Origin: an uncultured cyanobacterium
Lineage (GTDB): Bacteria; Cyanobacteriota; Cyanobacteriia; PCC-9006; JAAUQQ01
DNA: 64,000 nt
Direction: 5' to 3'
Assembly (NCBI GenBank): GCA_963718615.1
Contig: OY970368.1
Span: forward strand, 3,347,973-3,411,972
Shown: positions 30,935-46,523 of the stretch, one piece after another
Position numbering within the stretch: position 1 is the stretch's first letter
Layout: each line of letters starts with the position of its first letter
The notes under the pieces: generated by a model
Database searches by the model: none
Seen by the model: only the letters and a program-made list of their open reading frames with translations
What the model was told of the DNA's origin: nothing
Made by a program: the position numbers and the translations under genes

Positions 30935-32002
30935 ATGGGCTCATCCAATCCGACGGCAGCGCTGGAAACCCTTCAGTCAGAACTCTCTACCCTTATTGCT
31001 CAATTACCGTCCTTAGAACATGGCAAGCTGATTAAGCGTGTTCTAGAAAGCCTCTTGGTGATGGCCCAGGAAGACCTAGAACGCCTGGATTGGAAAATTT
31101 TGCTGGGCTCTTTGCAAGACATGGAGCGAGCCTTCACGCTGTTTTCGCCCTATCGACATATTCGCAAAATTGCGGTGTTTGGTTCAGCGCGAACGCCAAA
31201 GACGGACCCGGATTATCCGATGGCGGTTGAGTTTTCTCGCCGGATGGCGGAGCAAGGCTTCATGATTATGACGGGTGCAGGGGGGGGGATCATGGAGGCA
31301 GCGAATGAAGGGGCGGGGCGATCGCAATCCTTTGGGCTCAATGTCCAACTCCCCTTCGAGCAAAGCGCCAATCCCTTTATCAAAGGGGATAATAAGCTTC
31401 TGCAATTTAAATACTTTTTCACCCGCAAACTCTTTTTTCTGCGGGAAACCGATGCAGTCGCGGCCTTCCCTGGTGGTTATGGCACCATGGATGAACTCTA
31501 TGAATGTTTAACCCTGGTGCAAACGGGAAAATTTGGACCAGCACCGCTCATTTTGGTTGATCGACCGGGTGGAGATTATTGGCAGGAGTGGGAGAAATTT
31601 AGTAAGGATCAGCTTCTTCTAAAAGGACTCATTAGTCCTGAAGATCCTTGCCTATATACGATTACGGATCAAGTCGAAGTTGCCTGTCGAGTTATCTCTG
31701 ATTTCTATCGTGTTTACCATTCTAGTCGCTATGTTGGACCCTTGTTTATCATGCGGCTCAAGGCTGAACTAACGGATGAAGATGTAGAGTTTCTGAATCA
31801 TTCATTCAAAGATATTTTAGTCACCGATCGGATTGAAAAAACTCAAGCCCTGCCGGAAGAGGCCGCCGATGAAACCGTTGGCATGCCGCGCCTTAAGTTT
31901 CACTATAATCAGCGAGATACGGGACGTCTTTATCAACTGATTGCAGAAGTGAATCGATTGGGTGTCAAGTCCCTAGGTGAAGCTCACCCAGAGCAAAAAT
32001 AA
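30935..32002 (+). CDS. LOG-family protein (lysine-decarboxylase-like fold, long form)
   Basis: 'IAVFGSART', 'TGAGGGIMEAANEGA' and 'PGGYGTMDELYE' motifs. Confidence 0.8.
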   Translation: MGSSNPTAALETLQSELSTLIAQLPSLEHGKLIKRVLESLLVMAQEDLERLDWKILLGSLQDMERAFTLFSPYRHIRKIAVFGSARTPKTDPDYPMAVEFSRRMAEQGFMIMTGAGGGIMEAANEGAGRSQSFGLNVQLPFEQSANPFIKGDNKLLQFKYFFTRKLFFLRETDAVAAFPGGYGTMDELYECLTLVQTGKFGPAPLILVDRPGGDYWQEWEKFSKDQLLLKGLISPEDPCLYTITDQVEVACRVISDFYRVYHSSRYVGPLFIMRLKAELTDEDVEFLNHSFKDILVTDRIEKTQALPEEAADETVGMPRLKFHYNQRDTGRLYQLIAEVNRLGVKSLGEAHPEQK

Positions 32003-32311
32003 TTTGATTATCGCATCCTAAGAAGAGTCAATGTTCCAATTTTATAGCATTGACTTTGTGGGCCTAATGATTGCTCTCGACCTTGACTCCAATACAGTTC
32101 TTGGCCCAGTAAATTAATATTGTCTAAAGTTATTCGTGATCATTTTACCAACAGCTTTCTTACGTATTTGAGACAGCTTTATCGATAAATTGGGAAAACT
32201 AGAAGCTAAGCACTACACGATTTAATTTTCTGTTTCTCGGAAAATCGAGGATCTTTATCAGGGTTGCATTTGCTGTACTCCCGTCAGGAAAGTCTACCAG
32301 GACTGTGTCTC

Positions 32312-34924
32312 ATGAGTTACGGCCATGTTTCCGATCTAGCATCTCCTAGGAGCCAGCCAGGTCGGGATGCTGCATCCAATTCTCACCCGACCGACCCGAT
32401 GTCTTCAGGTTGGTCTGAGTTTCAGCATCTGTTCCTAACGCTGAATGAAAGCGATGGCTTTTCTCAGCTTAAACTCGTCTTGGAGAGTATGGATGATGCC
32501 ATTGTTTTGCTTAATGCTCAGAGAGCACTCCTCTTTGTCAACTCAGCCGCTAATCATCTTTTAGGAGATGGGGTGCATAGCTTTGTGCAACAAGATTGGG
32601 CAATTAGGTTAAGCGAGCTCTATGGAGCCCAAAAGTCTGCCCCAATCTCTTTGTCTGCTCAATCTTTTCTAGAGTCTACAGATTCTTCCTCCCTTTCAGA
32701 GGCAAAACCTAGAGTCTTTAAAATTTATAGCACGGATGAGCCCGAGCAATGGATCACAGTTGTTGAACGTCCTCTCCATAATCCTCAACAGCAGTTGCTT
32801 GGCAGTTTAATTATTTGCCGTGATATCAGTGAACATAAGCGGGTTGAGGAAAAGCTGTTACATGATGCTTTCCATGACAAGCTAACGGGATTGCCCAATC
32901 GCAATCTACTACTCAAGCAGTTGGAACGGGCGATCGCCACTACTCAACAATCCTCTAAATATCAATTTTCTGTTTTATTTTTAGATCTTGATCGGTTTAA
33001 GGTCATTAATGATAGCCTTGGTCCCATAGTTGGAGACCAACTACTGATTGCAGTAGCACAACGACTGAAACGTTGCCTAAGGGTAGAAGATATAATTGTG
33101 CGCTTAGGCGGTGACGAATTTGCAATTTTGTTGAATGATATCAAAGATATCAACTATAGTCAGCAGGTTGCTGATCGAGTCAACCAAGAGCTAGTCTTAC
33201 CCTTTAATCTGAATGGACATGAAGTGTTCGCGGATGTCAGTATTGGCATTGCGACTGGTGCCCAGGGGTATGAAAAACCAGAAGAAATTTTGCGGGATGC
33301 AGACATTGCAATGCACCATGCTAAAGAACTGGGAAAATCCTGTTATCAGTTCTTTGATAAAGCGATGCATATCGATGCAGTCAAGCTGCTTCAGCTTGAA
33401 AACGATATTCGTCGAGCAGTTGATCGGAAGGAATTTCAAGTTCACTACCAACCGATCATCTCACTGCACAGCGAGGAAATTGCAGGATTTGAAGCGTTAG
33501 CTCGCTGGCGACATCCTCAACAAGGATTTATTCCTCCCTCAGAATTTATTCCCGTTGCAGAAGAAACAGGTTTAATCATTCCCCTAGGACTTTGGGTTTT
33601 ACAGGAAAGCTGTTGGCAGATGAAAGTCTGGCAACTTCAGTTTCCTGAGGCGCACCAATGGACAATCAGCGTCAACATCTCCGGTCGTCAGTTGATGAAG
33701 CCACACTTTGTGGAGCATGTAAAGCATATCTTAGCTGACACAAATCTCTCTTCTAAAAACCTAAAGCTGGAAATTACTGAGAGTGTTTTACTAAATAGTA
33801 ATCAAGAGGTTACTTATATCCTAAAACAGCTTCAATCAATTGGTATTCAGCTTGCAATGGATGACTTTGGCACTGGATATTCTTCGATGAGCTATCTCTT
33901 AGATTTTCCATTTAATACGCTTAAAATTGATCGATCATTTATTAAGAGCATGGAAGGGTCTAGGAAAAAACTAGGCATTGTTCGTTCCATTATTAACATG
34001 TCAAGCAATTTAGATATGAATGTCATTGCTGAGGGTGTTGAAACTATGGGACATCTGGCTCAGCTCAAAGTTTTAAAGTGTGGCTATGGTCAGGGACATT
34101 TCTTTGCTAAAGCATTAGACTCTCAATCTGCTGAAGGGTTTATTATTTCTGAGCTTGCAAAAGTTGGAAGTAATCGTTATTCCGATCTTGAGATGTCGGT
34201 TGAAGAACTGCGATCTCGAGAACAACTACTTCTACAAATCGAAAGCCTTCAACAGGAATTAAACGAAATTAAGCAAGAGAAAGTCGATCTTGAAATTTTA
34301 TTGGAAACAGCCACAGAACATGCGAGCATTGTCGAACTAGAATTAGAGCAAGAGATTTTCGACTATCAGAAAAACGAAGAGGCTCTTCAAAAAGCCAATC
34401 GTGAACTAGAAAATTTATCTAGCCTAGATAGCCTAACTCAGTTGGCAAATCGCCGTCGTTTTGATGAATATATCAGAGAACAATGGGATATCTTAGGTCA
34501 ACAAAACAAGCCACTCTCGCTTATTCTTTTGGATGTTGACTACTTTAAAAATTATAACGACCATTATGGACATCAAGCTGGAGATAACTGCCTCATTCAA
34601 GTTGCCCAAGTGATGATGCAATCTGTCAAAAGTTCTCAGGATTTAACGGCTCGATATGGTGGCGAAGAATTCGCAGTGATTATGCCTAATACAGGGGCAG
34701 GAAGTGCAATTAGAACTGCTGAGCAAATCCGCATCACATTAAAATCTCGCCAAATTTCTCATGCCGGATCTCTAGTTGGTGAACATGTTACAGTCAGTCT
34801 TGGTATTGTTAGTTTAGTACCAACCGCAACGGGCAAACCAAATGCACTGATTGACTTAGCTGATCGCGCACTCTATGAAGCTAAGTCTCAAGGGCGTGAT
34901 CGGTTTATCTTATTTTCAAGCTAA
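32312..34924 (+). CDS. PAS-GGDEF-EAL-GGDEF signalling protein (diguanylate cyclase/phosphodiesterase)
   Basis: First GGDEF 'RLGGDEFAIL', EAL domain 'FEALARWRHPQQGFIPPSEFIPVAEETGLI', coiled coil, second GGDEF 'YGGEEFAVIMP'. ATG at 32312; ORF track starts at TTG 32264. Confidence 0.85.
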   Translation: MSYGHVSDLASPRSQPGRDAASNSHPTDPMSSGWSEFQHLFLTLNESDGFSQLKLVLESMDDAIVLLNAQRALLFVNSAANHLLGDGVHSFVQQDWAIRLSELYGAQKSAPISLSAQSFLESTDSSSLSEAKPRVFKIYSTDEPEQWITVVERPLHNPQQQLLGSLIICRDISEHKRVEEKLLHDAFHDKLTGLPNRNLLLKQLERAIATTQQSSKYQFSVLFLDLDRFKVINDSLGPIVGDQLLIAVAQRLKRCLRVEDIIVRLGGDEFAILLNDIKDINYSQQVADRVNQELVLPFNLNGHEVFADVSIGIATGAQGYEKPEEILRDADIAMHHAKELGKSCYQFFDKAMHIDAVKLLQLENDIRRAVDRKEFQVHYQPIISLHSEEIAGFEALARWRHPQQGFIPPSEFIPVAEETGLIIPLGLWVLQESCWQMKVWQLQFPEAHQWTISVNISGRQLMKPHFVEHVKHILADTNLSSKNLKLEITESVLLNSNQEVTYILKQLQSIGIQLAMDDFGTGYSSMSYLLDFPFNTLKIDRSFIKSMEGSRKKLGIVRSIINMSSNLDMNVIAEGVETMGHLAQLKVLKCGYGQGHFFAKALDSQSAEGFIISELAKVGSNRYSDLEMSVEELRSREQLLLQIESLQQELNEIKQEKVDLEILLETATEHASIVELELEQEIFDYQKNEEALQKANRELENLSSLDSLTQLANRRRFDEYIREQWDILGQQNKPLSLILLDVDYFKNYNDHYGHQAGDNCLIQVAQVMMQSVKSSQDLTARYGGEEFAVIMPNTGAGSAIRTAEQIRITLKSRQISHAGSLVGEHVTVSLGIVSLVPTATGKPNALIDLADRALYEAKSQGRDRFILFSS

Positions 34925-35231
34925 ATTAGTAAAACTATCTTTTCAAAGAGATACCTTTTAATAACATTTTGATGGACTGTATGAGTGCAAAACTAAATCA
35001 TTAAAAATTGAGAAAGCTATTTACTTCTCTACAGACAATTATTAATCAATGCCTTTGGGTCTGATGAACGACATCTACTGGTGCGAATATATCGAGAATT
35101 TAAAAAGAAAAAACTAGATTTATAGGCTCACAAGGCATTGGCAAGGCATTAGCAATGTCTTACCTCCAAAAAGCATAGACTCGACAACCTCCCAAATATT
35201 CTAAACAGCCAATAAAGAGAAGAAAAAACTT

Positions 35232-35627
35232 TTATTGTATTTCTAGTTTCAGGCTTGGCATCAAACGTTGTAAATTCTTTAGAGATTTACCCTGCCAAGG
35301 AATCTCTTCGTTACCTAGCACAGTTAATTGAACTGTTTTACGCTTCCTAATGTTGATTACAAACTTAGATAATAAGCTAATTCCCAAGCTATTTAGGAAC
35401 TGGAGCGAGCGTAAGTCAATTATAATTAGAGACGACTCTTGGTCTGCCATGGCTTCTAACATAGAGATAATTTGTTGATAATCAGGCTCACTGCCTTGAA
35501 ATCTCATCGAGCCTTCCAGTCGGATAGTTGCTTGATTAGAATCGTAAAAGACACAATATTTTTCATGGGAAATTTTCATATGTAATACTTCTTTGAATGG
35601 AGATTGAGAACTAGGCATGATATTCAA
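35232..35627 (-). CDS. STAS-domain protein (anti-sigma-factor-antagonist / SpoIIAA-RsbV-like)
   Basis: 'IIDLRSLQFLNSLGISLL' resembles the SpoIIAA phospho-serine region (DLSxVxF[MI]DSSGLG); last gene of the minus-strand operon. Confidence 0.5.
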   Translation of the reverse strand: MNIMPSSQSPFKEVLHMKISHEKYCVFYDSNQATIRLEGSMRFQGSEPDYQQIISMLEAMADQESSLIIIDLRSLQFLNSLGISLLSKFVINIRKRKTVQLTVLGNEEIPWQGKSLKNLQRLMPSLKLEIQ

Positions 35628-35695
35628 AAAATGTGAAGCAGAAAGGATCGTTAACAGCTTTAAAGATGACCAAATCGAACAGTAGTCCTATAAGT

Positions 35696-36295
35696 CTAAA
35701 TAGCTAGTTGTACCATAGTCGTAACCGTTATACTATCCTGACTAGTCGACTCATATTCAAACTTCCAGCCTAACTTTGCCGAATAGTCATTTAGCATAGT
35801 AAGTAGACCCAGCCCAGAATCAATATGATTTTCAGCATTTCTTTCGAGCTGACGAATATAAAGCTCTTCTGGATCTGAATTGACAACCTCTTCAATATAG
35901 CGTTGGAAACTTAAAACTGAATGCGGATTGATACTGTTTTTGATAAAGAAGATAATTTTGTCGACATCAAAGCAGAGACGAATTTGCGTATAGTCTACTT
36001 GGTTTTTATAACTAAACTTCATCGCATTTTCCAATAGCTCGTTGGCAATGAAGCTTACTGCATCTTTAATTTCAGCTTGTTTTTTCTGAGCCGCAAGATC
36101 TTCGTCCTTAATTGGTAAACAAGTTACAAGATAATCAGCGAGGAAATCAGCAGATATACCATTATTGCGCCATCTTTTCCTAGGAGGAGCACTACTAGGT
36201 GTGAAATGCAAAACTAGCTGCTCTCTGCAAGGAGGTAAGGCATCAATAAAATCACCAAACGTTGTAGCTGTTGGTATTATATTTCTGATAGTCAT
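35696..36295 (-). CDS. GHKL-type ATPase, anti-sigma-factor-like serine kinase (RsbW/SiaB-like)
   Basis: N-box-like 'ANELLENAMKFS' and G-box-like 'DSGLGL'; about 200 aa with no HisKA domain; adjacent to the STAS gene. Confidence 0.5.
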   Translation of the reverse strand: MTIRNIIPTATTFGDFIDALPPCREQLVLHFTPSSAPPRKRWRNNGISADFLADYLVTCLPIKDEDLAAQKKQAEIKDAVSFIANELLENAMKFSYKNQVDYTQIRLCFDVDKIIFFIKNSINPHSVLSFQRYIEEVVNSDPEELYIRQLERNAENHIDSGLGLLTMLNDYSAKLGWKFEYESTSQDSITVTTMVQLAI

Positions 36296-36323
36296 TGTTT
36301 TTCCTCGGAGTAGTTAATTAGTT

Positions 36324-38126
36324 TCAGTTTTTACGTTTAATAACTAAAAGTGTAATGTCATCGTAAATTTTACTATTGTCGATATGATCGTATAAGTCCT
36401 TAATTACAGTATCCTTAATTTCTAAAGCTGATTGATGACGGCATTGATTGATGCGATCGCACATTCGTTCCAGACCATACAACTTTCCCTCTTTACTCTC
36501 CGCTTCTGTAACACCATCAGTATAAAGAACAATAACGTCTCCTGGATGAATATAAACCTCGGTTTGATCAATAAAATCAAGAATCTCCTCTTCAAGTCCA
36601 ATGGGAAAACCCAAATCAACTGTACTAATTTGATTAATTTTTCCAGATTGAGTAAAGATTAATACTTCCTCATGCTGTCCACTTATCTTTAAACGCCCCT
36701 CATTATAGTCAACTAGCATCAACGTCAGATTTTTATCAGTTTCCATCCTCTTAATGTTGTGAAATATGGTTCGATTAACAACATCAAGAATTCGATTTTG
36801 TTCCGTTTCTCCATTCTCAATCAATGTTCGAATTGTGGTCTGGACCATTAACATTAACACGCCACTTTCTAGGCCGTGTCCCGTTACGTCTCCTATACCA
36901 ATCCGAATAGAGTCTCCATAGCAAATCACGTCATAATAATCTCCTCCAACTTCTTCCGCAGGCGTCATAAATCCTGCAATTTCCAGATCCTCAATTTTGG
37001 CAAGCTCTTTTTCTTTTGGAAGGATCATTTGCTGTAACTTTTGTGTGATTTCTAATTCAGCATTTAGTCGTGTATTTTCTTGTTCTAGCTTTTGATTTAA
37101 TGTTGTAATTTCATGATTAGCTTGTGCAAGTTGGTCGAGATATGAAGTTTCTTGATCTCGTAATCTTTTCTTCTCAAGACAAGCATCTACACGTGCTTTG
37201 AGTAAAACTGGATTAAAGGGCTTTGCTAGATAGTCTTCTGCCCCCATTTCAATGCATTTAACGACACTATCAATTTCGTCTAAAGATGAAATCATAATTA
37301 CAGGTAAATATCGCCAATCGCTGTTTCTTAGCCATTTTAATACCTGATATCCATTAATCTCTGGCATAATAACATCGAGCAACACTAAATCAAAGCTGCC
37401 TGACGTAATTGCTTGAATTGCTTCTAATCCACTCGAAACTTCTGTTTTCTGATGCCCTTGTCGCTGAACATATCGACTTAGTAAATCTCGATTGACAGCG
37501 TTGTTATCAACAATCAAAATATGAGATTTATAACTTAGATCAGACTTGTGTTCAGTATCTTTATTCTTAGAATGACAGTTTATTTCTTGTCTGTAGTCGG
37601 ATAGAGAAGGCGAGAAGTCTGAAATATTTTCTTGTTGCTTTTGAGTCGAAAACTTTAATGGCATTGTAACTGAGCTTTGTTGGATCAAGTCTTGAAAGAG
37701 ACAAGCTGCAACTTCTATTTTCTCAACATCAGCCCTGAAGGATTTAGGTGCTAAAGGTTTAAGATTTTGGCACTTTTCCAGCAATGGCTGAGCCAAAGGC
37801 TGCAACCGTGCTCGAACCCAATGTTTTGCACAATTCGATATCTCAAAAGCTATATTTTCGTCAATGACAAACTCATCTTGCAATGATTCTATCGTTAAAC
37901 CGCGACCAATATAGGATACTAAATGTTTGTTCTTTAGTGAGATCTCATGTAACTGTGACGATAGGATTTGGATATCTTGCAGATCAACTGATTCTTCCAA
38001 CTCCTCTATTAATAGCTCACTGTAGCCTTGAATTGCATTTAAAGGCGTATAAAGCTCATGTCTAAAATGAGCAATCCATGAGCTATAGTCTATTAGTTCA
38101 GCATCTAATGCTTGAGACACATTCAT
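36324..38126 (-). CDS. HisKA-like / receiver / PP2C (SpoIIE-type) phosphatase fusion protein
   Basis: N-terminal H-box 'HELYTPLNAIQGYSELL' with no ATPase domain; REC domain ('ILIVDNN...DLVLLDVIMPEINGY...MISS...KP'); coiled coil; C-terminal PP2C ('GGDYYD...GIGDVTGHGLESG...LYTDGVTEA'). Confidence 0.8.
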   Translation of the reverse strand: MNVSQALDAELIDYSSWIAHFRHELYTPLNAIQGYSELLIEELEESVDLQDIQILSSQLHEISLKNKHLVSYIGRGLTIESLQDEFVIDENIAFEISNCAKHWVRARLQPLAQPLLEKCQNLKPLAPKSFRADVEKIEVAACLFQDLIQQSSVTMPLKFSTQKQQENISDFSPSLSDYRQEINCHSKNKDTEHKSDLSYKSHILIVDNNAVNRDLLSRYVQRQGHQKTEVSSGLEAIQAITSGSFDLVLLDVIMPEINGYQVLKWLRNSDWRYLPVIMISSLDEIDSVVKCIEMGAEDYLAKPFNPVLLKARVDACLEKKRLRDQETSYLDQLAQANHEITTLNQKLEQENTRLNAELEITQKLQQMILPKEKELAKIEDLEIAGFMTPAEEVGGDYYDVICYGDSIRIGIGDVTGHGLESGVLMLMVQTTIRTLIENGETEQNRILDVVNRTIFHNIKRMETDKNLTLMLVDYNEGRLKISGQHEEVLIFTQSGKINQISTVDLGFPIGLEEEILDFIDQTEVYIHPGDVIVLYTDGVTEAESKEGKLYGLERMCDRINQCRHQSALEIKDTVIKDLYDHIDNSKIYDDITLLVIKRKN

Positions 38127-38128
38127 AG

Positions 38129-38515
38129 CTACTCGTTTGAATAGGGCTGCGTTTTTTTGAGCAATGCTTCGATTTTACTAATCAGGCGTTTTAGATCTAC
38201 TGGCTTAGTATCATAGTCATCACAACCGGCTTCTAGTGCCTTTTCGCGATCGCCTGACATTGCATGAGCAGTTAATGCAATAATCGGAATAGATTGAGTT
38301 TGAGGATTAAATTTAATATAACGCGTTGCTTCCCATCCATCTAAAATAGGTAAGCTCATATCCATTAAGACTAAGTCAGGTTTTTCTGCAATACTCATTG
38401 TCACACCTTGGGCCCCATCGGAAGCAATTGCAACCTCGTAGCCACGTCGACTTAATCGTCGAGACAGCATATCTTGATTCATTTCGTTGTCTTCAACCAG
38501 AAGTAGCTTTACCAT
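38129..38515 (-). CDS. Single-domain response regulator (CheY-like receiver)
   Basis: 'LLLVEDNEMNQDM...DLVLMDMSLPILDGWEA...ALTAHAM...KP'. Start placed at the ATG giving 'MVKLLLVED'; ORF track extends to 38560. Confidence 0.8.
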   Translation of the reverse strand: MVKLLLVEDNEMNQDMLSRRLSRRGYEVAIASDGAQGVTMSIAEKPDLVLMDMSLPILDGWEATRYIKFNPQTQSIPIIALTAHAMSGDREKALEAGCDDYDTKPVDLKRLISKIEALLKKTQPYSNE

Positions 38516-38576
38516 AAATTTAAAGGTCAAAATTCTTAAAAAGATTAGGGAAATAGGCAAAAGTTTAAATCTCCAA

Positions 38577-41054
38577 CTAAGATATATATGGTATTAGTAA
38601 TTGAGAGTTTTCTTTTAACCTTTCCTGTCTTTCTATTGCTTTTAATAATAGATCTTTTAATGTTGAAAGGAGAATCTTGCTTTCGCATAAATCTTTAATT
38701 AAAATTTCCTCAACTTGTCCTTGCAAACTTTGACGTTCAATGAAAGTTAGATCTTTAGCAGTCATTAAGATAACTGGGATTGCATCATAGAGACTATCCT
38801 GCCGTAAAGCCTGTAAAAACTCAAAACCATTCATTTTAGGCATCAAAAGATCTAATATAATTAAATTAGGATAGAAACCTGAATTTAATAGATGAAGACC
38901 TTCTATACCATTTTCAGCCGTTTTGACTATCCAACCTGCTGGTTCAAGTTGATGCGTTAATAAGTCTCGAATGATAGGATCGTCATCAATGAGCAGGATT
39001 TCTCGATTTTCTCCCTCTTGACAACAGCGTTGTAAAACCTCATATAGTCTTTGACGATCTATTGGCTTTGTTAAATATTCTGAGGCACCGAGCGCATATC
39101 CTCGACTCTGATCGTTTACAAAACTCATCATAATAACAGGAACCTCAGCTAGTTCTGAGTCGCTCTTAATCTGACTTAAAACAGACCAACCATCAATATC
39201 AGGCAAAATTACATCCAAGGTAATTGCCTGAGGACGGATTTCCCGAGCTAATCGTAGGCCCTCACTTCCTGTCGTAACAGTTTGTACAGCAAATCCCTGT
39301 TTAACAAGAAAACGACGCATAATGTCGTGAACGGCTAGATCATCATCTATGACTAATATCGTTTTTTGTAAGTTAGGCTTTGAAAAGTCTTCGTTTTCCT
39401 GGACAACACTTAAATTATTTTTATGGATATCAACCTTTCTAGGTAGTTGAATTATAAATGTGGAACCCTCTCTCAATTGACTGTCTACTTTAATGCTTCC
39501 TCCCATCATTAAACAGAACTCCTTAGTAATTGCTAATCCAAGTCCTGTTCCTCCATACTTACGGGTAGTAGAAGCATCTGCTTGAGAAAATGCTTGAAAT
39601 AACTTATTTTGCTGCTCAATCGTCATTCCAATACCCGTATCTCGAACTTTAAATAGAATCAAGTTTTGATCACTATCTTGATCCTCGACGATTTCTAAAT
39701 AAATTTTTCCACAACTTGTAAACTTACTTGCATTGCTCAGTAAGTTTAGTAAGCATTGGCGAATTTTAGTTAGATCAGCATACATTTCGCCAATATCGAC
39801 AGCACATTCTATAATCAACTGATTTTGCTGTTTATCTATTAATGGATGTACTGTTGTAACGACGTCCTCTATTAAATCTTGAATTGAAAAAGTTTCTAAG
39901 TAAACTTCCATTCGGCCTGCTTCTATTTTAGATAAATCTAAAATATCGTTGATCAGACCTAGCAAATGCTTTCCCGCACTATGAATTTTAACTAAATCTG
40001 GGACAAAATCTTCTTCGCCTAAATCAAGCGCCTCTTCATGCAGCATCTCACTGTATCCAATAATTGCATTAAGTGGTGTTCGTAGCTCATGACTCATATT
40101 GGCAAGAAACATACTCTTCGCCTGATTTGCCTCTTCTGCAGCGGCTTTTGCCTCACGAGCTTCTTCAATGCTATCCGCTAACTCTGTAGTTCGCTGAATG
40201 ACCTTCTGTTCTAGAGTTCGATTATAGTCTGCTAAATCTTCTTTTGCCTTTTCCAAGTCAATTTGGCTACTTTCTAGAGCTTCTGTTTTATTTTGAATCA
40301 TGCTAGCCATTTGATCAAACGCACGGGAAATTGTTGCGAGTTCATCAGACCCCTTGAGCTGAGCACGCACACTTAAGATTCCCTCTGATAATAAGTTACT
40401 GGCTGAGACTAACCTGGCAGCACGTCGAGTTAAGACCTCTTCAAAAAAGAACCAAACTGCTATACAAAGAAGGGTAAGAACAAAGGTGGATTCTAGCGAT
40501 CGCTTTAAAGCATCTCCATAGGTCTGTTGGCGTAGGCGCTTTAAGTCATAATCTAGGAACAAAATACCAATTTTTGAGGGTAATATTTCGCCTGGATCTG
40601 ACTTGAAAGCAACTGGATATAGGGCTTGAATAGATTGATGATCTGGACTGATTAAAACTTCACCTGCCTGCATTTGACGAATTTTTTCTATCTTTACATG
40701 GAGTTGATCTGCGGGAGTTTCTTCAATTGAAAGACCCTTGAGAAGCTGAGATGTCGTTAGAAGTACCTTATTTTGATCATCGAAGAGAATCGCAGACTTT
40801 AATTCAACTTCGTCTTCTAACTGACTGATCATAAGAGCAGCACCATCCCCGCTGACGCGACGATACAAGTATTCCAAGATACCAGAGGTATGGTCGCCCA
40901 TAAATCTGACGTAGTTGCTTACATTTTGCTCATTGCGACGATGAGCGAGGTATACTTCACGCCGAAATGAGTAAAAGCTAGAAAAACTACCTAAGATTAG
41001 TAAAATTAACGGAATTGAAAGGCGTAGGGGTGGTGGAAACCGCTTTGACATCAT
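38577..41054 (-). CDS. Hybrid sensor histidine kinase (periplasmic sensor region, TM, HisKA, HATPase_c, two C-terminal REC domains)
   Basis: H-box '[19 protein letters not shown]', G-boxes 'RDTGIGM' and 'GGTGLGLAI', then two receiver domains; N-terminal 180-aa region lies between two hydrophobic segments. Confidence 0.85.
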
Positions 41055-41092
41055 CAGCTCCTAAGAAAGGACAAACAACAATCGTTGTTTGA

Positions 41093-42121
41093 CTAAGGAC
41101 GAATACTTTTGATGACGCTGTCGTCCATCAGTAGAGTTGGATCAACTGTCTTTTTCAATAAACCGTTCTGTTTCATAATTGTTACAAGATGTTTTGAGCT
41201 TTGTACTAAAGTAGATTCTTGACTTCCTAATAGAGTTTTATTTTCTTCTAGACTCGGGACTCTTACTCCTTTTAAGGATGCTAAGAAGTCTGTAGACGAC
41301 ATATTGTAATCAGCAGCCAAGAGTTCAGCAGATTTTTGAGGATTTGCTTCTAGATATTCTTGAGCCTTAAACCATCCTTCCAGTAGGTGTTTTAGATTAC
41401 GATGTTGATTTTTGAGCGTCTCTGTATGCACACCCAGAACATCGACAATCTCTCCAGGAATCTGGCTACTATCAAATAGGTGATTTGCACCTTCCGTAAC
41501 CAGTCGAGAGCTCATCGGTTCATAGGTCACTAATCCATCAACCTTGTCTTTTTTAAAGGCTTGACCATGTTCGAAGGTTGCCAAAGGGACGATTTGCAAA
41601 TCCTTAGTTGAAAGATTTACGGTTTCTAGAGCTCGGGTTAGAAGAAACGCACCTAATCCTGATGATTCAACGCCGACTCGCTTCCCTGATAGTTCCTTTA
41701 AACTGGAAATGTCAGGCTTGCCTAAAATCGCATCGGCTCCATGGGAGCTGTCAATAACTAAGACAAAGCGCATATCCTGCATGACCTCAGCGATTGGCAT
41801 TGCATCGTTCATCGTCAATGCAACGGCGTCAAGTTCACCATTTCGAAAGGCTTTGAACATTGCACTATTGGAAGAATAGGTTGTTAGGTTGGCAACATTA
41901 GAATCGTAATACTTTAAGTCCTTTGCAAGATAAAAGCTTGCATATCCTGGCCAAACAACAACACCTATCCTGATAGGATTTTCTCCAATTTGAATACAGG
42001 ACGGCAAAGAAACGGTACAGAACAAAGAAACGAGAAGAAGGGAAATCCATTGAACTTTCAATTGAGAAGCAAACAACTTGATACAAGACAAAGTTTTTGC
42101 TTTCAAGAGACTTAGATCCAT
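41093..42121 (-). CDS. Periplasmic substrate-binding protein (NMT1/SsuA/TauA-like fold)
   Basis: Hydrophobic N-terminus, then 'IRIGVVVWPGYASFYLAKD' and overall class-II SBP layout; no ABC permease or ATPase nearby. Confidence 0.65.
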   Translation of the reverse strand: MDLSLLKAKTLSCIKLFASQLKVQWISLLLVSLFCTVSLPSCIQIGENPIRIGVVVWPGYASFYLAKDLKYYDSNVANLTTYSSNSAMFKAFRNGELDAVALTMNDAMPIAEVMQDMRFVLVIDSSHGADAILGKPDISSLKELSGKRVGVESSGLGAFLLTRALETVNLSTKDLQIVPLATFEHGQAFKKDKVDGLVTYEPMSSRLVTEGANHLFDSSQIPGEIVDVLGVHTETLKNQHRNLKHLLEGWFKAQEYLEANPQKSAELLAADYNMSSTDFLASLKGVRVPSLEENKTLLGSQESTLVQSSKHLVTIMKQNGLLKKTVDPTLLMDDSVIKSIRP

Positions 42122-42174
42122 GACTCAATACCTCAAAAATAAAGAGAAAAACTATATTGGTTTATTAATGAAAC

Positions 42175-43227
42175 CTATTGGTTAGACGCTAGTGCTTCAA
42201 TAAGATGATTGTCAATCAATTCTTCTAGTGGATAAATCTTTTGAAGATGGTGACTTTGTGCCAATTCTTCTTGAAGCTTATGTACACATTTTTCTAACCA
42301 TGATTCTTTGAGAGAGAGCATCCTTGCATTTTCCTCTAAAGTATATTCATGAATTCCTTGCATTGCTTTGAAAAGTTCTTTACTCATTAGCTTATTGCGA
42401 GCAAAAATTATTTTAGCCGCATCTTGAGGCTTGTTTCTGTAGTATTCTTGTGCTTTAAACCAACCGTTTATGAGCTCTTGAAGAGCTAATTTATAGCTTT
42501 CTATTGAATCATCTCGAACCAACAAAACATCAACGATCTCGTTCAGCATTTGATGACTACTAAAGACTTCTTGAGCTCCTTCTGCTATTAGCTGAGAAAG
42601 AATTGGTTCATAGGTGATAATCGTAGAAACTGATGACTGACGGAATGAATTAATTTGATCATTCAGATCAAGGGGAACAACCTGAATATCCTCTATCGTC
42701 AGTCCTGCCAGATCGAGTAGACGTGTGAGCATTAAGGTTCCCCGGCTCGAAGCTTCTATAGCAACAGTTTGTTTTTTTAATTCATAGAGAGATTTTATAG
42801 GATTTCGAGTAATAACAGCATCTGCCCCACAGGAACTACTCAAGATCAAGACAATTTTGAGATGCGGATCTGTATCTGAAAGAAGCAAAGCATCTCCCAA
42901 TGAAAGCAGTAATCCGTCAAGTTGCTGATTGCGAAAGGCACGATTTTTATCTTCAACGGTAGGATAATTAATCAGCCTAATATCTTGTTGATCGTAATAG
43001 CCTAAACGTTGAGCAAGATAAACGTTGTTATAAGAAAGGCCAGTAGTTGTTCCAATTCTGAGAGGAGCTGCATTCGAGGTGCAACTCACAAAGGCTAGAC
43101 TAATAGCGCTAATGAGTCCAACCAAAAGCGTCTTGAAGCGATGTTTTTTGGGAACCGGCGATCGCCAAGCGGAATATATTCTATTGATCAATCTAATTGA
43201 TCTAAGTGGTAGAGAACGGCGCATCAC
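42175..43227 (-). CDS. Periplasmic substrate-binding protein, paralogue of 41093..42121
   Basis: Same layout, with 'LLEGWFKAQEYLEANPQ' in one and 'LINGWFKAQEYYRNKPQ' in the other; first gene of the operon. Confidence 0.65.
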   Translation of the reverse strand: MMRRSLPLRSIRLINRIYSAWRSPVPKKHRFKTLLVGLISAISLAFVSCTSNAAPLRIGTTTGLSYNNVYLAQRLGYYDQQDIRLINYPTVEDKNRAFRNQQLDGLLLSLGDALLLSDTDPHLKIVLILSSSCGADAVITRNPIKSLYELKKQTVAIEASSRGTLMLTRLLDLAGLTIEDIQVVPLDLNDQINSFRQSSVSTIITYEPILSQLIAEGAQEVFSSHQMLNEIVDVLLVRDDSIESYKLALQELINGWFKAQEYYRNKPQDAAKIIFARNKLMSKELFKAMQGIHEYTLEENARMLSLKESWLEKCVHKLQEELAQSHHLQKIYPLEELIDNHLIEALASNQ

Positions 43228-43676
43228 CTTTACTTACCCAACAAACTGCTGGAAATTGACTCATTATCCTTTTGACCCATTAATCGCCTTTAACTCCGTC
43301 TCTGTTTTATAGAAAAGCGGTTTATCTACGGCTTTGGATAGGATGTCCTTCAGTATGCCCAGCGAGATTTTAAAACCGACAAAATTTGATTAGTCCGTAA
43401 AACCTAGGAAGCACTTGAGTCATGATTCTCTAGGAAACCGTGTTTTTACTCAATTCTCCTTAGTCAGGGTTATCTATGCTAGATATGTAGATCTTGTCTA
43501 TGGGCTTCATCTCTATTACTTAGAAGCTGTCTGCTTAAATGTTATCCGTCTTGTCGTTTTCCATCTTGATTGCTATCTAGCGTTGATCACTCAGTTGATT
43601 CATCAAGTTGGTACACTCAATTAGTACGTCGCCATTCTCATCCATCATTCTTGTACGTTGTAGAGTTTTGAACACA

Positions 43677-44900
43677 ATGAAATCCTCTGTGCATAGGCTG
43701 AATGACATTACCCAGCATGAAATTGAGGCACTCAAACATGAATATAATATGTCTGATGCTCATACACATCAATCTCAGTCTCCAAGCCAGAGGAAAATTG
43801 TAGAGCGTCTACCACAGCTTTGGTTTGACGCAGAGAATAAGCGACAACATGAGTTAGAGCAATGCTTCTTAGAAAATTTCTTTCGGGTACAGGGACGACC
43901 TTGGGCGCTTAAAAATAAGCTTCCTATGCTGGTCTATTCAGCTTCAATTGCAATGGCAATTACTGCAAACTACCTGCTTAAGAAAAAGCTGACTGTAAGT
44001 TTAATTCATCCATGTTTTGACAACTTGGTCGATCTGATGAAAAACATGCAGGTTCCACTTCAAGCACTTGAAGAGGAATGGCTGTATGATCCCGAAATGA
44101 TCTATGAGAATCTCGAAAAGAATGTCAAGAGTGACGCTATCTTCTTGGTTGATCCTAACAATCCATCTGGATTTACGCTATATCAGCAAGGAATAGTCGG
44201 TTGGCAAGAGCTAATCCGGTTTGCGAAAGAAAACAAAAAGTTGCTGATTTTTGACTTTTGCTTTGCAGCTTTCATGCTGAATAACAAAAATCTACAGCTC
44301 TTCGACATTTATGAAATGTTGGAGACTTCTGGTGTAAGCTATATTGCGATGGAGGATACGGGTAAGACTTGGCCGCTACAAGATGCTAAGGTTGCTATGC
44401 TTAAAAGCAGTGCTGATCTTTACGCGGATATCTACAATCTTTATACTGCTTATCTTCTGAACGTATCACCTTTTATACTGAATATCGTAACTCAGTATAT
44501 TCTTGATTCTGAAAAAGATAAATTTGCATCAGTGCACGGTTTGCTGAGCCGCAATCGTGCGATCGCTGAAGGAATTCTCAAAGATTCTATTTTAGAACCA
44601 ATGACTCCTTTGGTGAATGTTAGTGTGATGTGGTGTCGAATCAACAGTGAACAGATTCAATCTAGTCAGCTCAAGACTTACTTGACAGAATTTGACATTC
44701 ACATTTTACCTGGAACTTTCTTTTTCTGGAATTCACCCCAGCGCGGCGAACGCTTTATTCGCTTGGCTTTAGCGCGTAATACTGAAACTTTCGAACCTGC
44801 CGTACGAGCCCTTCGAGATGCTGTTGACCAATACGAAGTTTTCCTCTCCGCTCAGAAAACTCAGCGGGATTTATGCTCCCCTAGTAACGCCCTTTTATAA
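43677..44900 (+). CDS. PLP-dependent aminotransferase-fold protein
   Basis: 'LVDPNNPSGF' and a candidate PLP-lysine in 'MEDTGKTW'. Start placed at the ATG giving 'MKSSVHRL'; ORF track begins at TTG 43608. Confidence 0.6.
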   Translation: MKSSVHRLNDITQHEIEALKHEYNMSDAHTHQSQSPSQRKIVERLPQLWFDAENKRQHELEQCFLENFFRVQGRPWALKNKLPMLVYSASIAMAITANYLLKKKLTVSLIHPCFDNLVDLMKNMQVPLQALEEEWLYDPEMIYENLEKNVKSDAIFLVDPNNPSGFTLYQQGIVGWQELIRFAKENKKLLIFDFCFAAFMLNNKNLQLFDIYEMLETSGVSYIAMEDTGKTWPLQDAKVAMLKSSADLYADIYNLYTAYLLNVSPFILNIVTQYILDSEKDKFASVHGLLSRNRAIAEGILKDSILEPMTPLVNVSVMWCRINSEQIQSSQLKTYLTEFDIHILPGTFFFWNSPQRGERFIRLALARNTETFEPAVRALRDAVDQYEVFLSAQKTQRDLCSPSNALL

Positions 44901-45672
44901 GGGACAGTTTGATCAAGACTCACTCTATCGCCTGATGGATACGATTGAGCCCTTTGCAGAGGGATTTGTACCCTGTTTGAGTTCTGGCGAAGGTCAGTTT
45001 CTTTCCCTCTCAACTTGGCAGAATGTTATCCAGGCAACGCGTCAATATACTCAGAAGGTAGTTATTGCGGGGATCAAACGTGAAACTCTACAAGAGACAA
45101 TAGCGTTAGGTAAACTGGCACAACAGTTGGGTTGTGATGCCATTATTGTGCCGGTACCTGTCTCAGATGATAGGGTTACCGTTGGTTACTTCAATCAAAT
45201 TACCGCTGCGATCGCCCTACCCATTGTTATCTATAATACGGAAAGCCATTCTATTCAATCACTAGATGGTTTAAGGCAACTGGAGAGCTTACCTCAAATC
45301 ATTGCTATTAAGGATTCTTCCATGAATGAAGAATTTTTTAAGCTCCTTTGTAATTTGAGAACTCAAGCGCAGCTCCGTCTTTCGGTTCTACAGGGATTTG
45401 AACATCTTTTGCAAGTCCCCCCTGGTTGTGATGGCTATCTCATTGCCTTGGCAAATCTTGAACCAGAGCTTTGCCATCGAATGTTGCTTGAAAATTCTGA
45501 TGTGATCAATAGTGAAATTCTAGATTGCTTTTGGCGTTATAACCTGGGTGCTGATTGGTTTGTGAGTATGAAGGCAATTTTGATGGCTCGCCAAGTCATT
45601 CGCTCTGCGGAACAAGTTAATCTAATGGTTCAACCCGATCTTAAATCGGTTCCTAATTTGGCGATCGCATAG
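44818..45672 (+). CDS. DapA/NAL-family (class I aldolase, dihydrodipicolinate-synthase-like) protein
   Basis: 'GIYAPLVTPF' N-terminal motif and 'IIAIKDSS' candidate Schiff-base lysine. Overlaps the preceding gene by 83 bp; true start may be a non-ATG codon further in. Confidence 0.65.
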   Translation: MLLTNTKFSSPLRKLSGIYAPLVTPFYKGQFDQDSLYRLMDTIEPFAEGFVPCLSSGEGQFLSLSTWQNVIQATRQYTQKVVIAGIKRETLQETIALGKLAQQLGCDAIIVPVPVSDDRVTVGYFNQITAAIALPIVIYNTESHSIQSLDGLRQLESLPQIIAIKDSSMNEEFFKLLCNLRTQAQLRLSVLQGFEHLLQVPPGCDGYLIALANLEPELCHRMLLENSDVINSEILDCFWRYNLGADWFVSMKAILMARQVIRSAEQVNLMVQPDLKSVPNLAIA

Positions 45673-45984
45673 CCATCATCAAGCTTAACTAAGCATGCTT
45701 CCATCATTCCAATGATCGAGTGGATAAAAACAAGTTAACTGATTGCCTGCGATTTTTTTTATGAGTTGCAGGCTTTTTCGATATTTAATTTGATCAATAA
45801 CCCAATGCTGTGTAATTTACTTAAGCTTGAATGTTTTCAAATAAATTTGAAATTTTAGGCTACTTAGTCTGATATTGCTTTTGTTTTATTCATAAAAAGT
45901 TCGGATTGTATCTATGAACTAGGAAGATGGAAATAGAGATGGCTATCACGGTTATTTCTTGCTTATCTTCATTGCTTTATTTCT

Positions 45985-46485
45985 ATGTTGGGCTGGATCT
46001 TCTTGGCTTTTGCAGTTTGTTTGGATGTTCTGGGCACATTTGCTGCAAAATATGCGAATGGGTTTACAACACTGATTCCATCACTCATTACTATTGGGGC
46101 CTATTGTTTATCATTTACAGCGTTGACCTTTTCGATCAAAACACTCGATGTCAGCGTGGCTTATCCGGTTTGGACTGGCTCTGCAATCTTTTTAGTGGCT
46201 GTTTTAGGGGCTGTATTCTTCCACGAAACGGTCAATTTCTTTAAAGTCTTTTCAACACTTTTGGTCGTCTTTGGCATCGTTGGCTTAGTGGTTAGTAGCC
46301 AGCCCGATGCAGCGGCTTGTCCGCCGGAGGTAGAACAAACTCAGCACCTACTCCAGAGCAGTAATCGCCCAAGGCTGTCCATGTCTCCTGTCTTTCATCG
46401 ATTAGGCACACCTGTACTCTATGCAACTGTTAAGGGATACTCTGCCAACGTCATTCGTTTAAAGCCAGAGTTTTCTGAAAACTAA
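45985..46485 (+). CDS. SMR/DMT-like small membrane transporter with about 60-aa C-terminal extension
   Basis: Four TM helices in the first ~105 aa; hydrophilic tail follows. ATG start. Confidence 0.45.
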   Translation: MLGWIFLAFAVCLDVLGTFAAKYANGFTTLIPSLITIGAYCLSFTALTFSIKTLDVSVAYPVWTGSAIFLVAVLGAVFFHETVNFFKVFSTLLVVFGIVGLVVSSQPDAAACPPEVEQTQHLLQSSNRPRLSMSPVFHRLGTPVLYATVKGYSANVIRLKPEFSEN

Positions 46486-46523
46486 GGATGGCAACGCAAT
46501 CTCGTGCTTAGGTTGCCATCCTT
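46484..46523. terminator. Hairpin with perfect 12-bp stem (aaggatggcaac / gttgccatcctt) and 16-nt loop, between convergent genes
   Basis: Starts at the stop codon of the 45985..46485 ORF. Confidence 0.5.

Follow-up and report, generated by a model that had tools for sequence, protein, structure and literature searches.

A receptor-linked NMT1/SsuA-type binding protein as a predicted co-sensor of a cyanobacterial hybrid kinase

The activation of membrane receptors by solute-binding proteins (SBPs) is considered a common mechanism, although known examples are few. SBP-dependent receptors have been documented for the pairs LuxP/LuxQ, TorT/TorS, AioX/AioS, ChvE/VirA, CBP/ChiS and NspS/MbaA (PMC8050422 Table 1). 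Kinase-stimulating SBPs typically have signalling genes as their neighbours, and a 2021 review that lists receptor partners for 13 SBP families does not include NMT1/SsuA (PMC8050422). Our own literature search, outside which most subscription journals lie, returned no report of a kinase or GGDEF receptor that responds to an SBP of the NMT1/SsuA type. Here we analyse a stretch of 64,000 nucleotides (nt) from an uncultured cyanobacterium (GenBank assembly GCA_963718615.1, contig OY970368.1, positions 3,347,973 to 3,411,972; hereafter the window), in which two SBP genes, SBP1 and SBP2, stand at the head of a kinase operon. We consider it likely that SBP2 is a dedicated co-sensor of the membrane kinase encoded next to it and not a component of a transporter, a reading based on sequence comparison across many loci.

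The operon consists of seven signalling genes on the minus strand, the first two being SBP1 (42175–43227) and SBP2 (41093–42121), with gaps of 2 to ~70 nt further downstream. The SBP1 open reading frame (ORF) has a GTG start and encodes 350 amino acids; the public annotation starts one codon later and gives 349. SBP2 has 342 amino acids. Both genes are intact and co-oriented, a gap of 53 nt separates them, and their products are paralogs (35% identity across 314 amino acids, E = 9e-65, BLASTP). Pfam and NCBIfam identify no ATP-binding cassette (ABC) permease or ATPase in the operon. A preliminary description of the locus had proposed two paralogous SBPs heading a kinase operon that lacks ABC genes, and this picture holds.

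That description had also assigned both proteins an NMT1/SsuA-like fold, and Pfam agrees. SBP1 scores 36.2 bits against NMT1_2 (PF13379; 7.5e-09) and 33.9 bits against NMT1 (PF09084; 3.8e-08), and SBP2 scores 66.1 bits (5.5e-18) and 43.3 bits, respectively, all above the gathering cut-offs of 24.7 bits for NMT1_2 and 20.5 bits for NMT1. Neither protein reaches any of the NCBIfam cut-offs for transporter SBPs: SBP2 reaches 116.6 bits against a cut-off of 163.5 for SsuA_fam, 108.8 against 333.9 for the urea-carboxylase-associated SBP model TIGR03427 and 33.8 against 304 for the taurine model. No NrtA or CmpA model is found among the NCBIfam matches. An AlphaFold2 model of SBP2 built from 52 homologs (pLDDT 92.7, pTM 0.83) has the two-lobed class II SBP fold. 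Its top Foldseek match is Escherichia coli TauA (6ssy; E = 4.8e-22, TM-score 0.85 normalised to TauA), followed by SsuA and then by PqqT, ThiY and Thi5. SsuA and ThiY, both suggested earlier as comparisons, are among the structural neighbours, whereas the sole CmpABCD-related structure in the list appears at rank 35 with a TM-score of 0.54–0.58.

Each SBP begins with a basic stretch and continues into a hydrophobic stretch that closes at a lipobox cysteine (Cys49 in SBP1, Cys42 in SBP2). Nearly all of 120 listed homologs have this cysteine 8–10 residues ahead of the conserved 'PLRVG' with which the mature domain begins. From these features we predict that both proteins are exported lipoproteins; with export signals present and the expected fold recovered, neither looks cytoplasmic or of unrelated fold. 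SBP2 has 1172 homologs at E ≤ 1e-5, and those with names are mainly from cyanobacteria (Calothrix, Microcoleus, Leptolyngbya, Geminocystis and Phormidium). Metagenome-assembled genomes (MAGs) of gammaproteobacteria and Casimicrobiaceae also carry homologs. A look-up of the exact SBP2 sequence returned no record.

The gene that follows SBP2 (38577–41054, minus strand) encodes a hybrid sensor histidine kinase of 825 amino acids, with a first transmembrane segment (TM1), a periplasmic PDC-like domain, a second transmembrane segment (TM2), and HAMP, HisKA, HATPase_c and two REC domains (Pfam). Hydrophobic segments at residues 9–30 and 186–210 delimit the periplasmic sensor domain (residues ~31–186; 40497–40964, minus strand), the predicted docking site of the SBP. 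The hybrid kinase and its periplasmic region are thus present as first described, although the region measures ~155 residues and not ~180. In isolation it has no Pfam match, even at E ≤ 10, and it matches neither LuxQ-periplasm (PF09308) nor the TorS sensor domain. The AlphaFold2 model of the domain (pLDDT 87.5) runs from a long N-terminal helix through a helix, two strands, a helix and three strands to a C-terminal helix that leads into TM2. A single PDC/sCache fold is predicted, the nearest folds being the PDC domains of WalK and CitA. NCBIfam matches of the kinase lie in its cytoplasmic part: TorS is the best (334 bits, cut-off 676.5, residues 193–682), and LuxQ_Vibrio matches the cytoplasmic core only (273 bits, cut-off 1200).

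A word-indexed search for homologs of the kinase N-terminus yielded a single protein because of the limits of that index, and an exhaustive search of 1.84 billion representatives was used instead. It recovered the sensor domain in 149 clusters (50% identity) at E ≤ 1e-3, always at receptor residues ~26–190. The further domains of 59 such receptors include HAMP in all 59, HisKA in 52, REC in 31, PAS in ~25, GAF in 11, GGDEF in 7 and EAL in 3. The window kinase itself matches the hidden Markov model (HMM) of the sensor domain built here at 7e-62.

The evidence that carries the co-sensor reading is the coupling of the two genes. A genome-contig scan with a single protein query found one locus, and an alignment query would reach further; a profile of the SBP found 567 metagenomic relatives, for which 80 loci were fetched and joined to 8 earlier ones to give 88 (L001–L088). 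In 81 of these the sensor-domain HMM matches a same-strand ORF directly 3' of the SBP, and the contigs of the remaining 7 stop within ~250 nt of the SBP stop codon, which makes them untestable. Two further annotated loci, of proteobacterial type, follow the same order: in L089 the SBP is followed by a HAMP-GGDEF-EAL protein with a 4-nt overlap, and in L090 an OmpR-type response regulator, the SBP and a hybrid histidine kinase succeed one another with overlapping starts. SBP-then-receptor adjacency thus holds in 83 of 83 testable loci. Reverse look-ups from receptors, with sensor identity as low as 25%, placed an SBP upstream in each of four cases; two of those SBPs are cut by the contig end and are still matched at E = 1.6e-45 and 1.1e-7.

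These loci come from cyanobacteria, gammaproteobacteria and betaproteobacteria, and their GC content (0.36–0.71) indicates that many lineages are represented. The downstream receptors differ in architecture, from HAMP-GAF-histidine kinase in Calothrix and HAMP-PAS-histidine kinase in Microcoleus to HAMP-GAF-PAS-GGDEF-EAL in L007; the closest relatives of the window, L001 and L006, have the same hybrid kinase operon. All receptors share an N-terminal transmembrane segment, a periplasmic domain of ~155 residues, a further transmembrane segment and a HAMP module. Their first ~210 residues align, and their periplasmic domains are 35–70% identical to that of the window despite the different outputs. 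The best explanation of this pattern in the sequences is that the SBP and its 'TM-PDC-TM-HAMP' partner form an ancient, portable two-gene input cassette present in many phyla. The L008 receptor is divided between two ORFs, one with the HAMP part and one with the HisKA/HATPase part; this points to a frameshift or to an error of assembly.

A transport role has to be weighed against this coupling. Every Pfam and NCBIfam match of the SBPs is to transporter SBPs (SsuA_fam, taurine and the urea-carboxylase-associated SBP), and TauA and SsuA head the structural matches, as would be expected if the two proteins were ordinary NitT/TauT components for a sulfonate- or taurine-like solute, with their importer encoded elsewhere and the kinase a mere neighbour or a secondary user, as Tar is of MalE. 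Orphan SBP genes are known (PMC9602780), and gene adjacency is not proof of function (PMC11113362). The SBP scores nevertheless stay below all the NCBIfam family cut-offs, and adjacency to a receptor is unbroken from phylum to phylum, with stop and start codons that often overlap. Among 205 genes flanking the SBP–receptor pairs the recurrent families are response regulators, with 12 upstream (11 of them with an OmpR-type output domain) and 12 downstream. ABC_tran and BPD_transp_1 are not recurrent in that set, and no ABC ATPase motif is found in the loci L001–L088. The cognate permease and ATPase that accompany a NitT/TauT importer SBP appear neither in the operon nor in the window, and they do not recur among the 205 neighbours. 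Instead, a predicted exported SBP is encoded beside a receptor in a signalling context, as in the class of SBP-stimulated sensor kinases that includes LuxPQ, TorTS, AioXS, HptAS and XylFII-LytS. SBPs that also serve chemoreceptors are encoded with transporter genes, whereas kinase-linked SBPs are encoded with signalling genes (PMC8050422). We regard an ordinary transport function as very improbable.

The residues at predicted cleft positions bear both on the ligand and on the question of whether the SBP binds one at all. TauA binds taurine at its sulfonate through Gln30 and the backbone amides of Gly61, Gly79 and Thr132, and at its amine through Glu106, Thr132 and Asp205 (PMC6906117). Aligned at ~17% identity, TauA Ser60/Gly61 correspond to S84/N85 of SBP2, Gly79 to T103, Glu106 to D130, Thr132 to L156/G157, Trp176 to Y200 and Asp205 to D227. 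The position of Gln30 varies within the SBP family, and after it comes an insertion, Trp57-Pro58, that is specific to the family. D130 is identical in 84 of 84 locus-derived SBPs and D227 in 82, with asparagine in the other two. Across the same 84 proteins, which cover the full GC range, W57, G59, S84, D124, S126, G128, D130, E152, A155, G157, T199, P202, F216, D217, S218, P222 and D227 are each at least 95% conserved, which suggests one shared ligand or interface.

These aligned positions make a small amine-bearing or cationic solute the probable ligand, because an aromatic residue and several carboxylates are present, including both counterparts of the amine-binding residues of TauA. Nitrate and bicarbonate, two of the ligands hinted at in the preliminary description, look unlikely because the pocket positions are acidic and aromatic and no NrtA or CmpA family match was found; an amine or cation fits better, by inference only. 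SBP2 and its closest relatives (P0002–P0007) read 'WPGYA' where the family motif is 'WPGYE' (residue 61 of SBP2; window ~41939–41941). As Glu61 is otherwise at least 95% conserved in the family, even the canonical copy of the window clade may have a slightly different ligand or affinity.

Lipoproteins can also accompany kinases in other ways, as LpqB accompanies MtrB. On that model the PDC domain of the kinase would be the true ligand sensor and the SBP-like lipoprotein a ligand-independent scaffold, inhibitor or anchor. The PDC/sCache fold of the sensor, a direct ligand binder in CitA, PctD and many receptors, speaks for such an arrangement, as do the sensor's own near-invariant residues P147, G163, R126 and D170. 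Conservation of at least 95% at the cleft positions of the SBP across distant phyla is, however, hard to explain without a bound ligand, and the counterparts of the TauA carboxylates, D130 and D227, are kept almost throughout. The sensors of LuxQ, VirA, ChiS and AioS are likewise Cache/PDC-like, yet they are stimulated by SBPs (PMC8050422). A ligand-independent accessory role seems to us distinctly unlikely.

If SBP2 is a co-sensor, the membrane-anchored periplasmic protein would bind a small solute in the cleft between its lobes, and bound SBP2 would signal to the hybrid kinase of the adjacent gene by way of the kinase's PDC-like periplasmic domain. The change would then travel through TM2 and HAMP to the kinase core, be relayed by the REC domains of the kinase and a free REC protein, and pass to a HisKA-like/REC/PP2C protein. 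Its PP2C phosphatase would set the phosphorylation state of a Slr1659-type STAS protein, the partner of a Slr1658-type switch protein. We infer the contact between SBP and receptor, the direction of regulation, the order of the relay and the class of the ligand. The main argument for direct signalling from SBP to PDC domain is the strict linkage of the two genes; the overlapping stop and start codons, the lack of transporter genes, the predicted exported lipoprotein and the combination of one input with varied outputs back it further.

Several points weigh against this interpretation. PDC domains usually bind ligands themselves, so that the kinase might sense its signal directly. Adjacency can mislead, since AgtS and AruS of Pseudomonas aeruginosa have adjacent SBP genes and yet show no SBP–sensor binding (PMC11113362). 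The correspondence between TauA and SBP2 residues comes from HMMER alignments at the low identity given above and not from coordinates; some of the conserved acidic residues may be structural or belong to the receptor interface, and D217 and S218 of SBP2 also occur in TauA, as D192 and S193. The scan for Walker-A and signature motifs that found no ABC ATPase across the 64-kb window used a regular expression without a real ABC ATPase as positive control, and a NitT/TauT permease and ATPase may be encoded elsewhere in the genome, beyond the 64 kb scanned. Even with these points, the linkage across phyla and the absence of transporter enrichment support the co-sensor role first suggested for these SBPs.

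The two SBPs of the window do not contribute equally to that role. Of the 70 columns in which 50 other members of the family show at least 90% conservation, SBP2 keeps 66 and SBP1 46. The 24 positions lost from SBP1 include (in SBP2 numbering) W57, now glycine, G59, S84, now threonine, D124, D217, P222 and G223; D130, E152, E224 and D227 are still in place. Mean identity to the family is 32% for SBP1 and 44% for SBP2, against 50% among the other members themselves, and no homolog of SBP1 above 40% identity was found in 5.8 billion proteins. The syntenic MAG locus L001 has orthologs that are 49% (SBP1) and 72% (SBP2) identical. The ratio of nonsynonymous to synonymous differences between window and L001 (pN/pS) is 0.42 for SBP1, below neutrality, and 0.23 for SBP2; only pN/pS is given, as saturation of synonymous sites (pS 0.76–0.88) makes dN/dS unusable. 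In L006 the counterpart of SBP1 has decayed to a remnant of 257 amino acids while the rest of the operon is intact.

The duplication itself could be the functional point, with SBP1 and SBP2 acting on one kinase as a heterodimer or as two specificities. This would suit the intact, closely spaced gene pair, the retention of SBP1 in L001 at a pN/pS below neutrality, and L016, where an independent tandem pair consists of two canonical copies that are 58% identical; AibA and AibB, moreover, serve one chemoreceptor of Helicobacter pylori (PMC8050422). Outside the window clade (L001 and the decayed L006), however, L016 alone of the fetched loci has a tandem second copy, and the lost conserved positions of SBP1 and its decay in an otherwise intact operon also count against a functional pair, which we think unlikely. 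The core unit is one SBP and one receptor, because SBP1 is divergent, is decayed in L006 and has no equivalent at most other loci. The two-SBP co-sensor arrangement first proposed thus stands for SBP2, the canonical receptor-linked copy and predicted ligand-binding co-sensor, whereas SBP1, by its sequence, is a clade-specific, fast-changing extra copy with an altered cleft. It may tune the system, through a second ligand or competition for the receptor, may be gaining a new function or may be drifting to loss.

Downstream of the kinase, the window shares with L001 and L006 a conserved REC-only single-domain response regulator (38129–38560, minus strand; Pfam Response_reg 2.8e-25). Next comes a 600-residue HisKA-like/REC/PP2C-SpoIIE protein (36324–38126, minus strand; Pfam SpoIIE 7.8e-38, Response_reg 1.1e-26, HisKA 6.1e-06 at residues 17–55), an architecture also found in L001 and L006. 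The HisKA-like segment retains the phospho-accepting histidine ('FRHELYTPLNAI') and has no ATPase domain, which suggests a built-in histidine phosphotransfer step that replaces a separate Hpt protein. The last two genes encode a Slr1658-family protein (DUF6272; 35696–36295, minus strand; slr1658_cyano 250.1 bits, cut-off 200), with weak similarity to SiaB-type switch kinases (NCBIfam SiaB_fam_kinase 1.1e-4), and a Slr1659-superfamily STAS protein (35232–35627, minus strand; slr1659_superfam 141.9 bits, cut-off 100), which has a weak STAS/anti-sigma antagonist match and is the likely phospho-substrate of the partner switch. Convergent with this end of the operon lies a gene for an 886-amino-acid PAS-GGDEF-EAL-GGDEF protein with two GGDEF domains (32264–34924, plus strand); a cyclic di-GMP (c-di-GMP) enzyme beside a SiaB-like/STAS/PP2C module recalls SiaABCD of Pseudomonas.

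At the other end, a divergent intergenic region of 380 bp (43228–43607) 5' of SBP1 is the presumed operon promoter and is common to an MppP-like gene on the opposite strand; a promoter consensus scan of the SBP operon region found nothing above chance. A terminator-like hairpin of 8 bp with a T-rich tail (41072–41091, minus strand) lies in the gap that separates SBP2 from the kinase gene. Conceivably, it might attenuate read-through and so give an excess of SBP over kinase, but terminator-like sites are no more frequent in the region than chance predicts (3 observed, 5.1 expected).

The operon, the convergent GGDEF/EAL gene and a divergent set of MppP-like, aldolase and SMR genes lie within a low-GC island (31000–46500; 0.36–0.42 compared with ~0.52 in the flanks). 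The orthologous region of L001 has a mild dip (0.47–0.51 compared with 0.53–0.58). Recent transfer of the island was ruled out, because island proteins (68–75% identical to those of L001) and the flanking PepA (76%) are about equally diverged. On the plus strand at 43608–45672, ORFs for an MppP-like pyridoxal-phosphate-dependent enzyme (TIGR04462, 164 bits, cut-off 450; a weaker GntC match) and a DHDPS-family aldolase overlap by 83 nt. The pair is conserved in L001 and L006. An MppP-type arginine oxidase and an aldolase would presumably yield guanidinoacetaldehyde, as in the RohP/RohR route of azomycin biosynthesis; a literature search did not confirm this route and found no MppP-plus-aldolase pathway. 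The pair was considered as a clue to the ligand, and this was not sustained because it is confined to the window clade.

An SMR-family protein of 166 amino acids is encoded beyond the aldolase (45985–46485, plus strand; in L001, 5572–6072, minus strand). Its first transmembrane segment has an aspartate ('LDVLGT') in place of the canonical membrane-embedded glutamate ('FEVLAT' in L008), and it carries a C-terminal tail of ~60 amino acids; both features are conserved in L001. The window protein passes no SMR subfamily cut-off. In L006 a bufferin-type set for a ribosomally synthesized and post-translationally modified peptide (BufA1, an MbnB/TglH/ChrH-family protein, HvfC_N and an Rce1-like protein; 2935–6024) lies between the aldolase and SMR genes and is absent from the window. 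In Calothrix-like loci (L002, L003, L008, L009 and L010) the SBP is immediately preceded by a gene for a canonical SMR protein of 104 amino acids, and a creatininase-family gene lies a few kilobases downstream. The SMR exporter as a ligand clue was likewise not sustained, since only the Calothrix-like clade has SMR genes recurring upstream (4 of 111 genes in that position) and no subfamily cut-off is passed.

Although SBP-dependent activation is itself a known mode of signalling, the joining of this SBP family to an unannotated sensor family is new, and the coupling is unusually strict and widely distributed. We tentatively propose, somewhat short of an outright claim, that SBP2 and the PDC receptor represent a previously undescribed phylum-spanning cassette and the first periplasmic signalling role of the NMT1/SsuA fold, feeding one conserved cationic or amine signal into histidine kinase or c-di-GMP outputs and, in the cyanobacterial clade of the window, supplying the missing input of the Slr1658/Slr1659 partner switch. 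The family is open to direct study, with at least 567 metagenomic SBP relatives and the 149 sensor clusters. The constant adjacency of the two genes makes the receptor partner of each SBP unambiguous, and the hundreds of natural SBP–receptor pairs suffice for analysing how the interface has co-evolved. A pocket so nearly invariant suggests a single ligand, which one thermal-shift screen could find. For cyanobacteria, the operon links an extracellular input to the Slr1658/Slr1659 module and so offers a candidate input for it.

Comparison with known systems places each part of the operon differently. TauA and SsuA are the closest solved folds to SBP2 (TM-scores of 0.80–0.85, target-normalised), and the amine-binding Glu106 and Asp205 of TauA align with D130 and D227. 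SBP2 is nevertheless only 17–18% identical to them, is variable across its family at the Gln30 position, has no TauBC/SsuBC-type partner and always stands beside a receptor. The end of the operon resembles the Slr1658 locus of Synechocystis sp. PCC 6803, in that its last two genes belong to the slr1658 and slr1659 families. Disruption of Slr1658 derepresses pgr5 ~1000-fold and impairs recovery from iron limitation, and the signalling chain has been reported as unknown (PMC7555055, PMC6525291).

For the SBP–receptor pair, the preliminary description had pointed to LuxP/LuxQ and TorT/TorS, and both hold as functional analogies but not as homologies, the SBP families being different and the receptor having a single PDC domain. 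LuxP/LuxQ of Vibrio (autoinducer-2) likewise has a transporter-less SBP, encoded directly upstream, that signals by way of the periplasmic Cache-like domain of a hybrid kinase; LuxP, however, belongs to Peripla_BP_4 and LuxQ has the tandem PF09308 domain (PMC8050422), whereas here an NMT1/SsuA SBP meets a single PDC domain that has no Pfam match. TorT/TorS (trimethylamine N-oxide) also combines a dedicated SBP with a hybrid kinase, and TorS matches the cytoplasmic part of the window kinase below cut-off; the match does not extend to the periplasmic region, and TorT/TorS pairs a Peripla_BP_1 protein with a helical (HBM-like) sensor (PMC8050422). In NspS/MbaA of Vibrio cholerae (polyamine) an SBP-like protein controls a membrane GGDEF-EAL enzyme, and the cassette is wired in this way in L007, L089 and L091. 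An amine ligand here would make the chemistry similar too, although NspS (SBP_bac_8) and the dCache-like sensor of MbaA (PMC8050422) are not homologous to the cassette.

The closest known system in architecture, by function and not by homology, is AioX/AioS of Agrobacterium tumefaciens, which responds to arsenite. The receptors belong to different families, that of the cassette having many outputs; SBP2 itself has no match to PF12974, and its acidic and aromatic pocket does not look suited to an oxyanion. AioX is nevertheless of the Phosphonate-bd family (PF12974), which some SBP2 homologs match weakly and which belongs to a related SBP clan. AioS, moreover, has a single sCache/PDC-like sensor without Pfam annotation, and AioX, like SBP2, is a dedicated SBP encoded with signalling genes and no transporter (PMC8050422).

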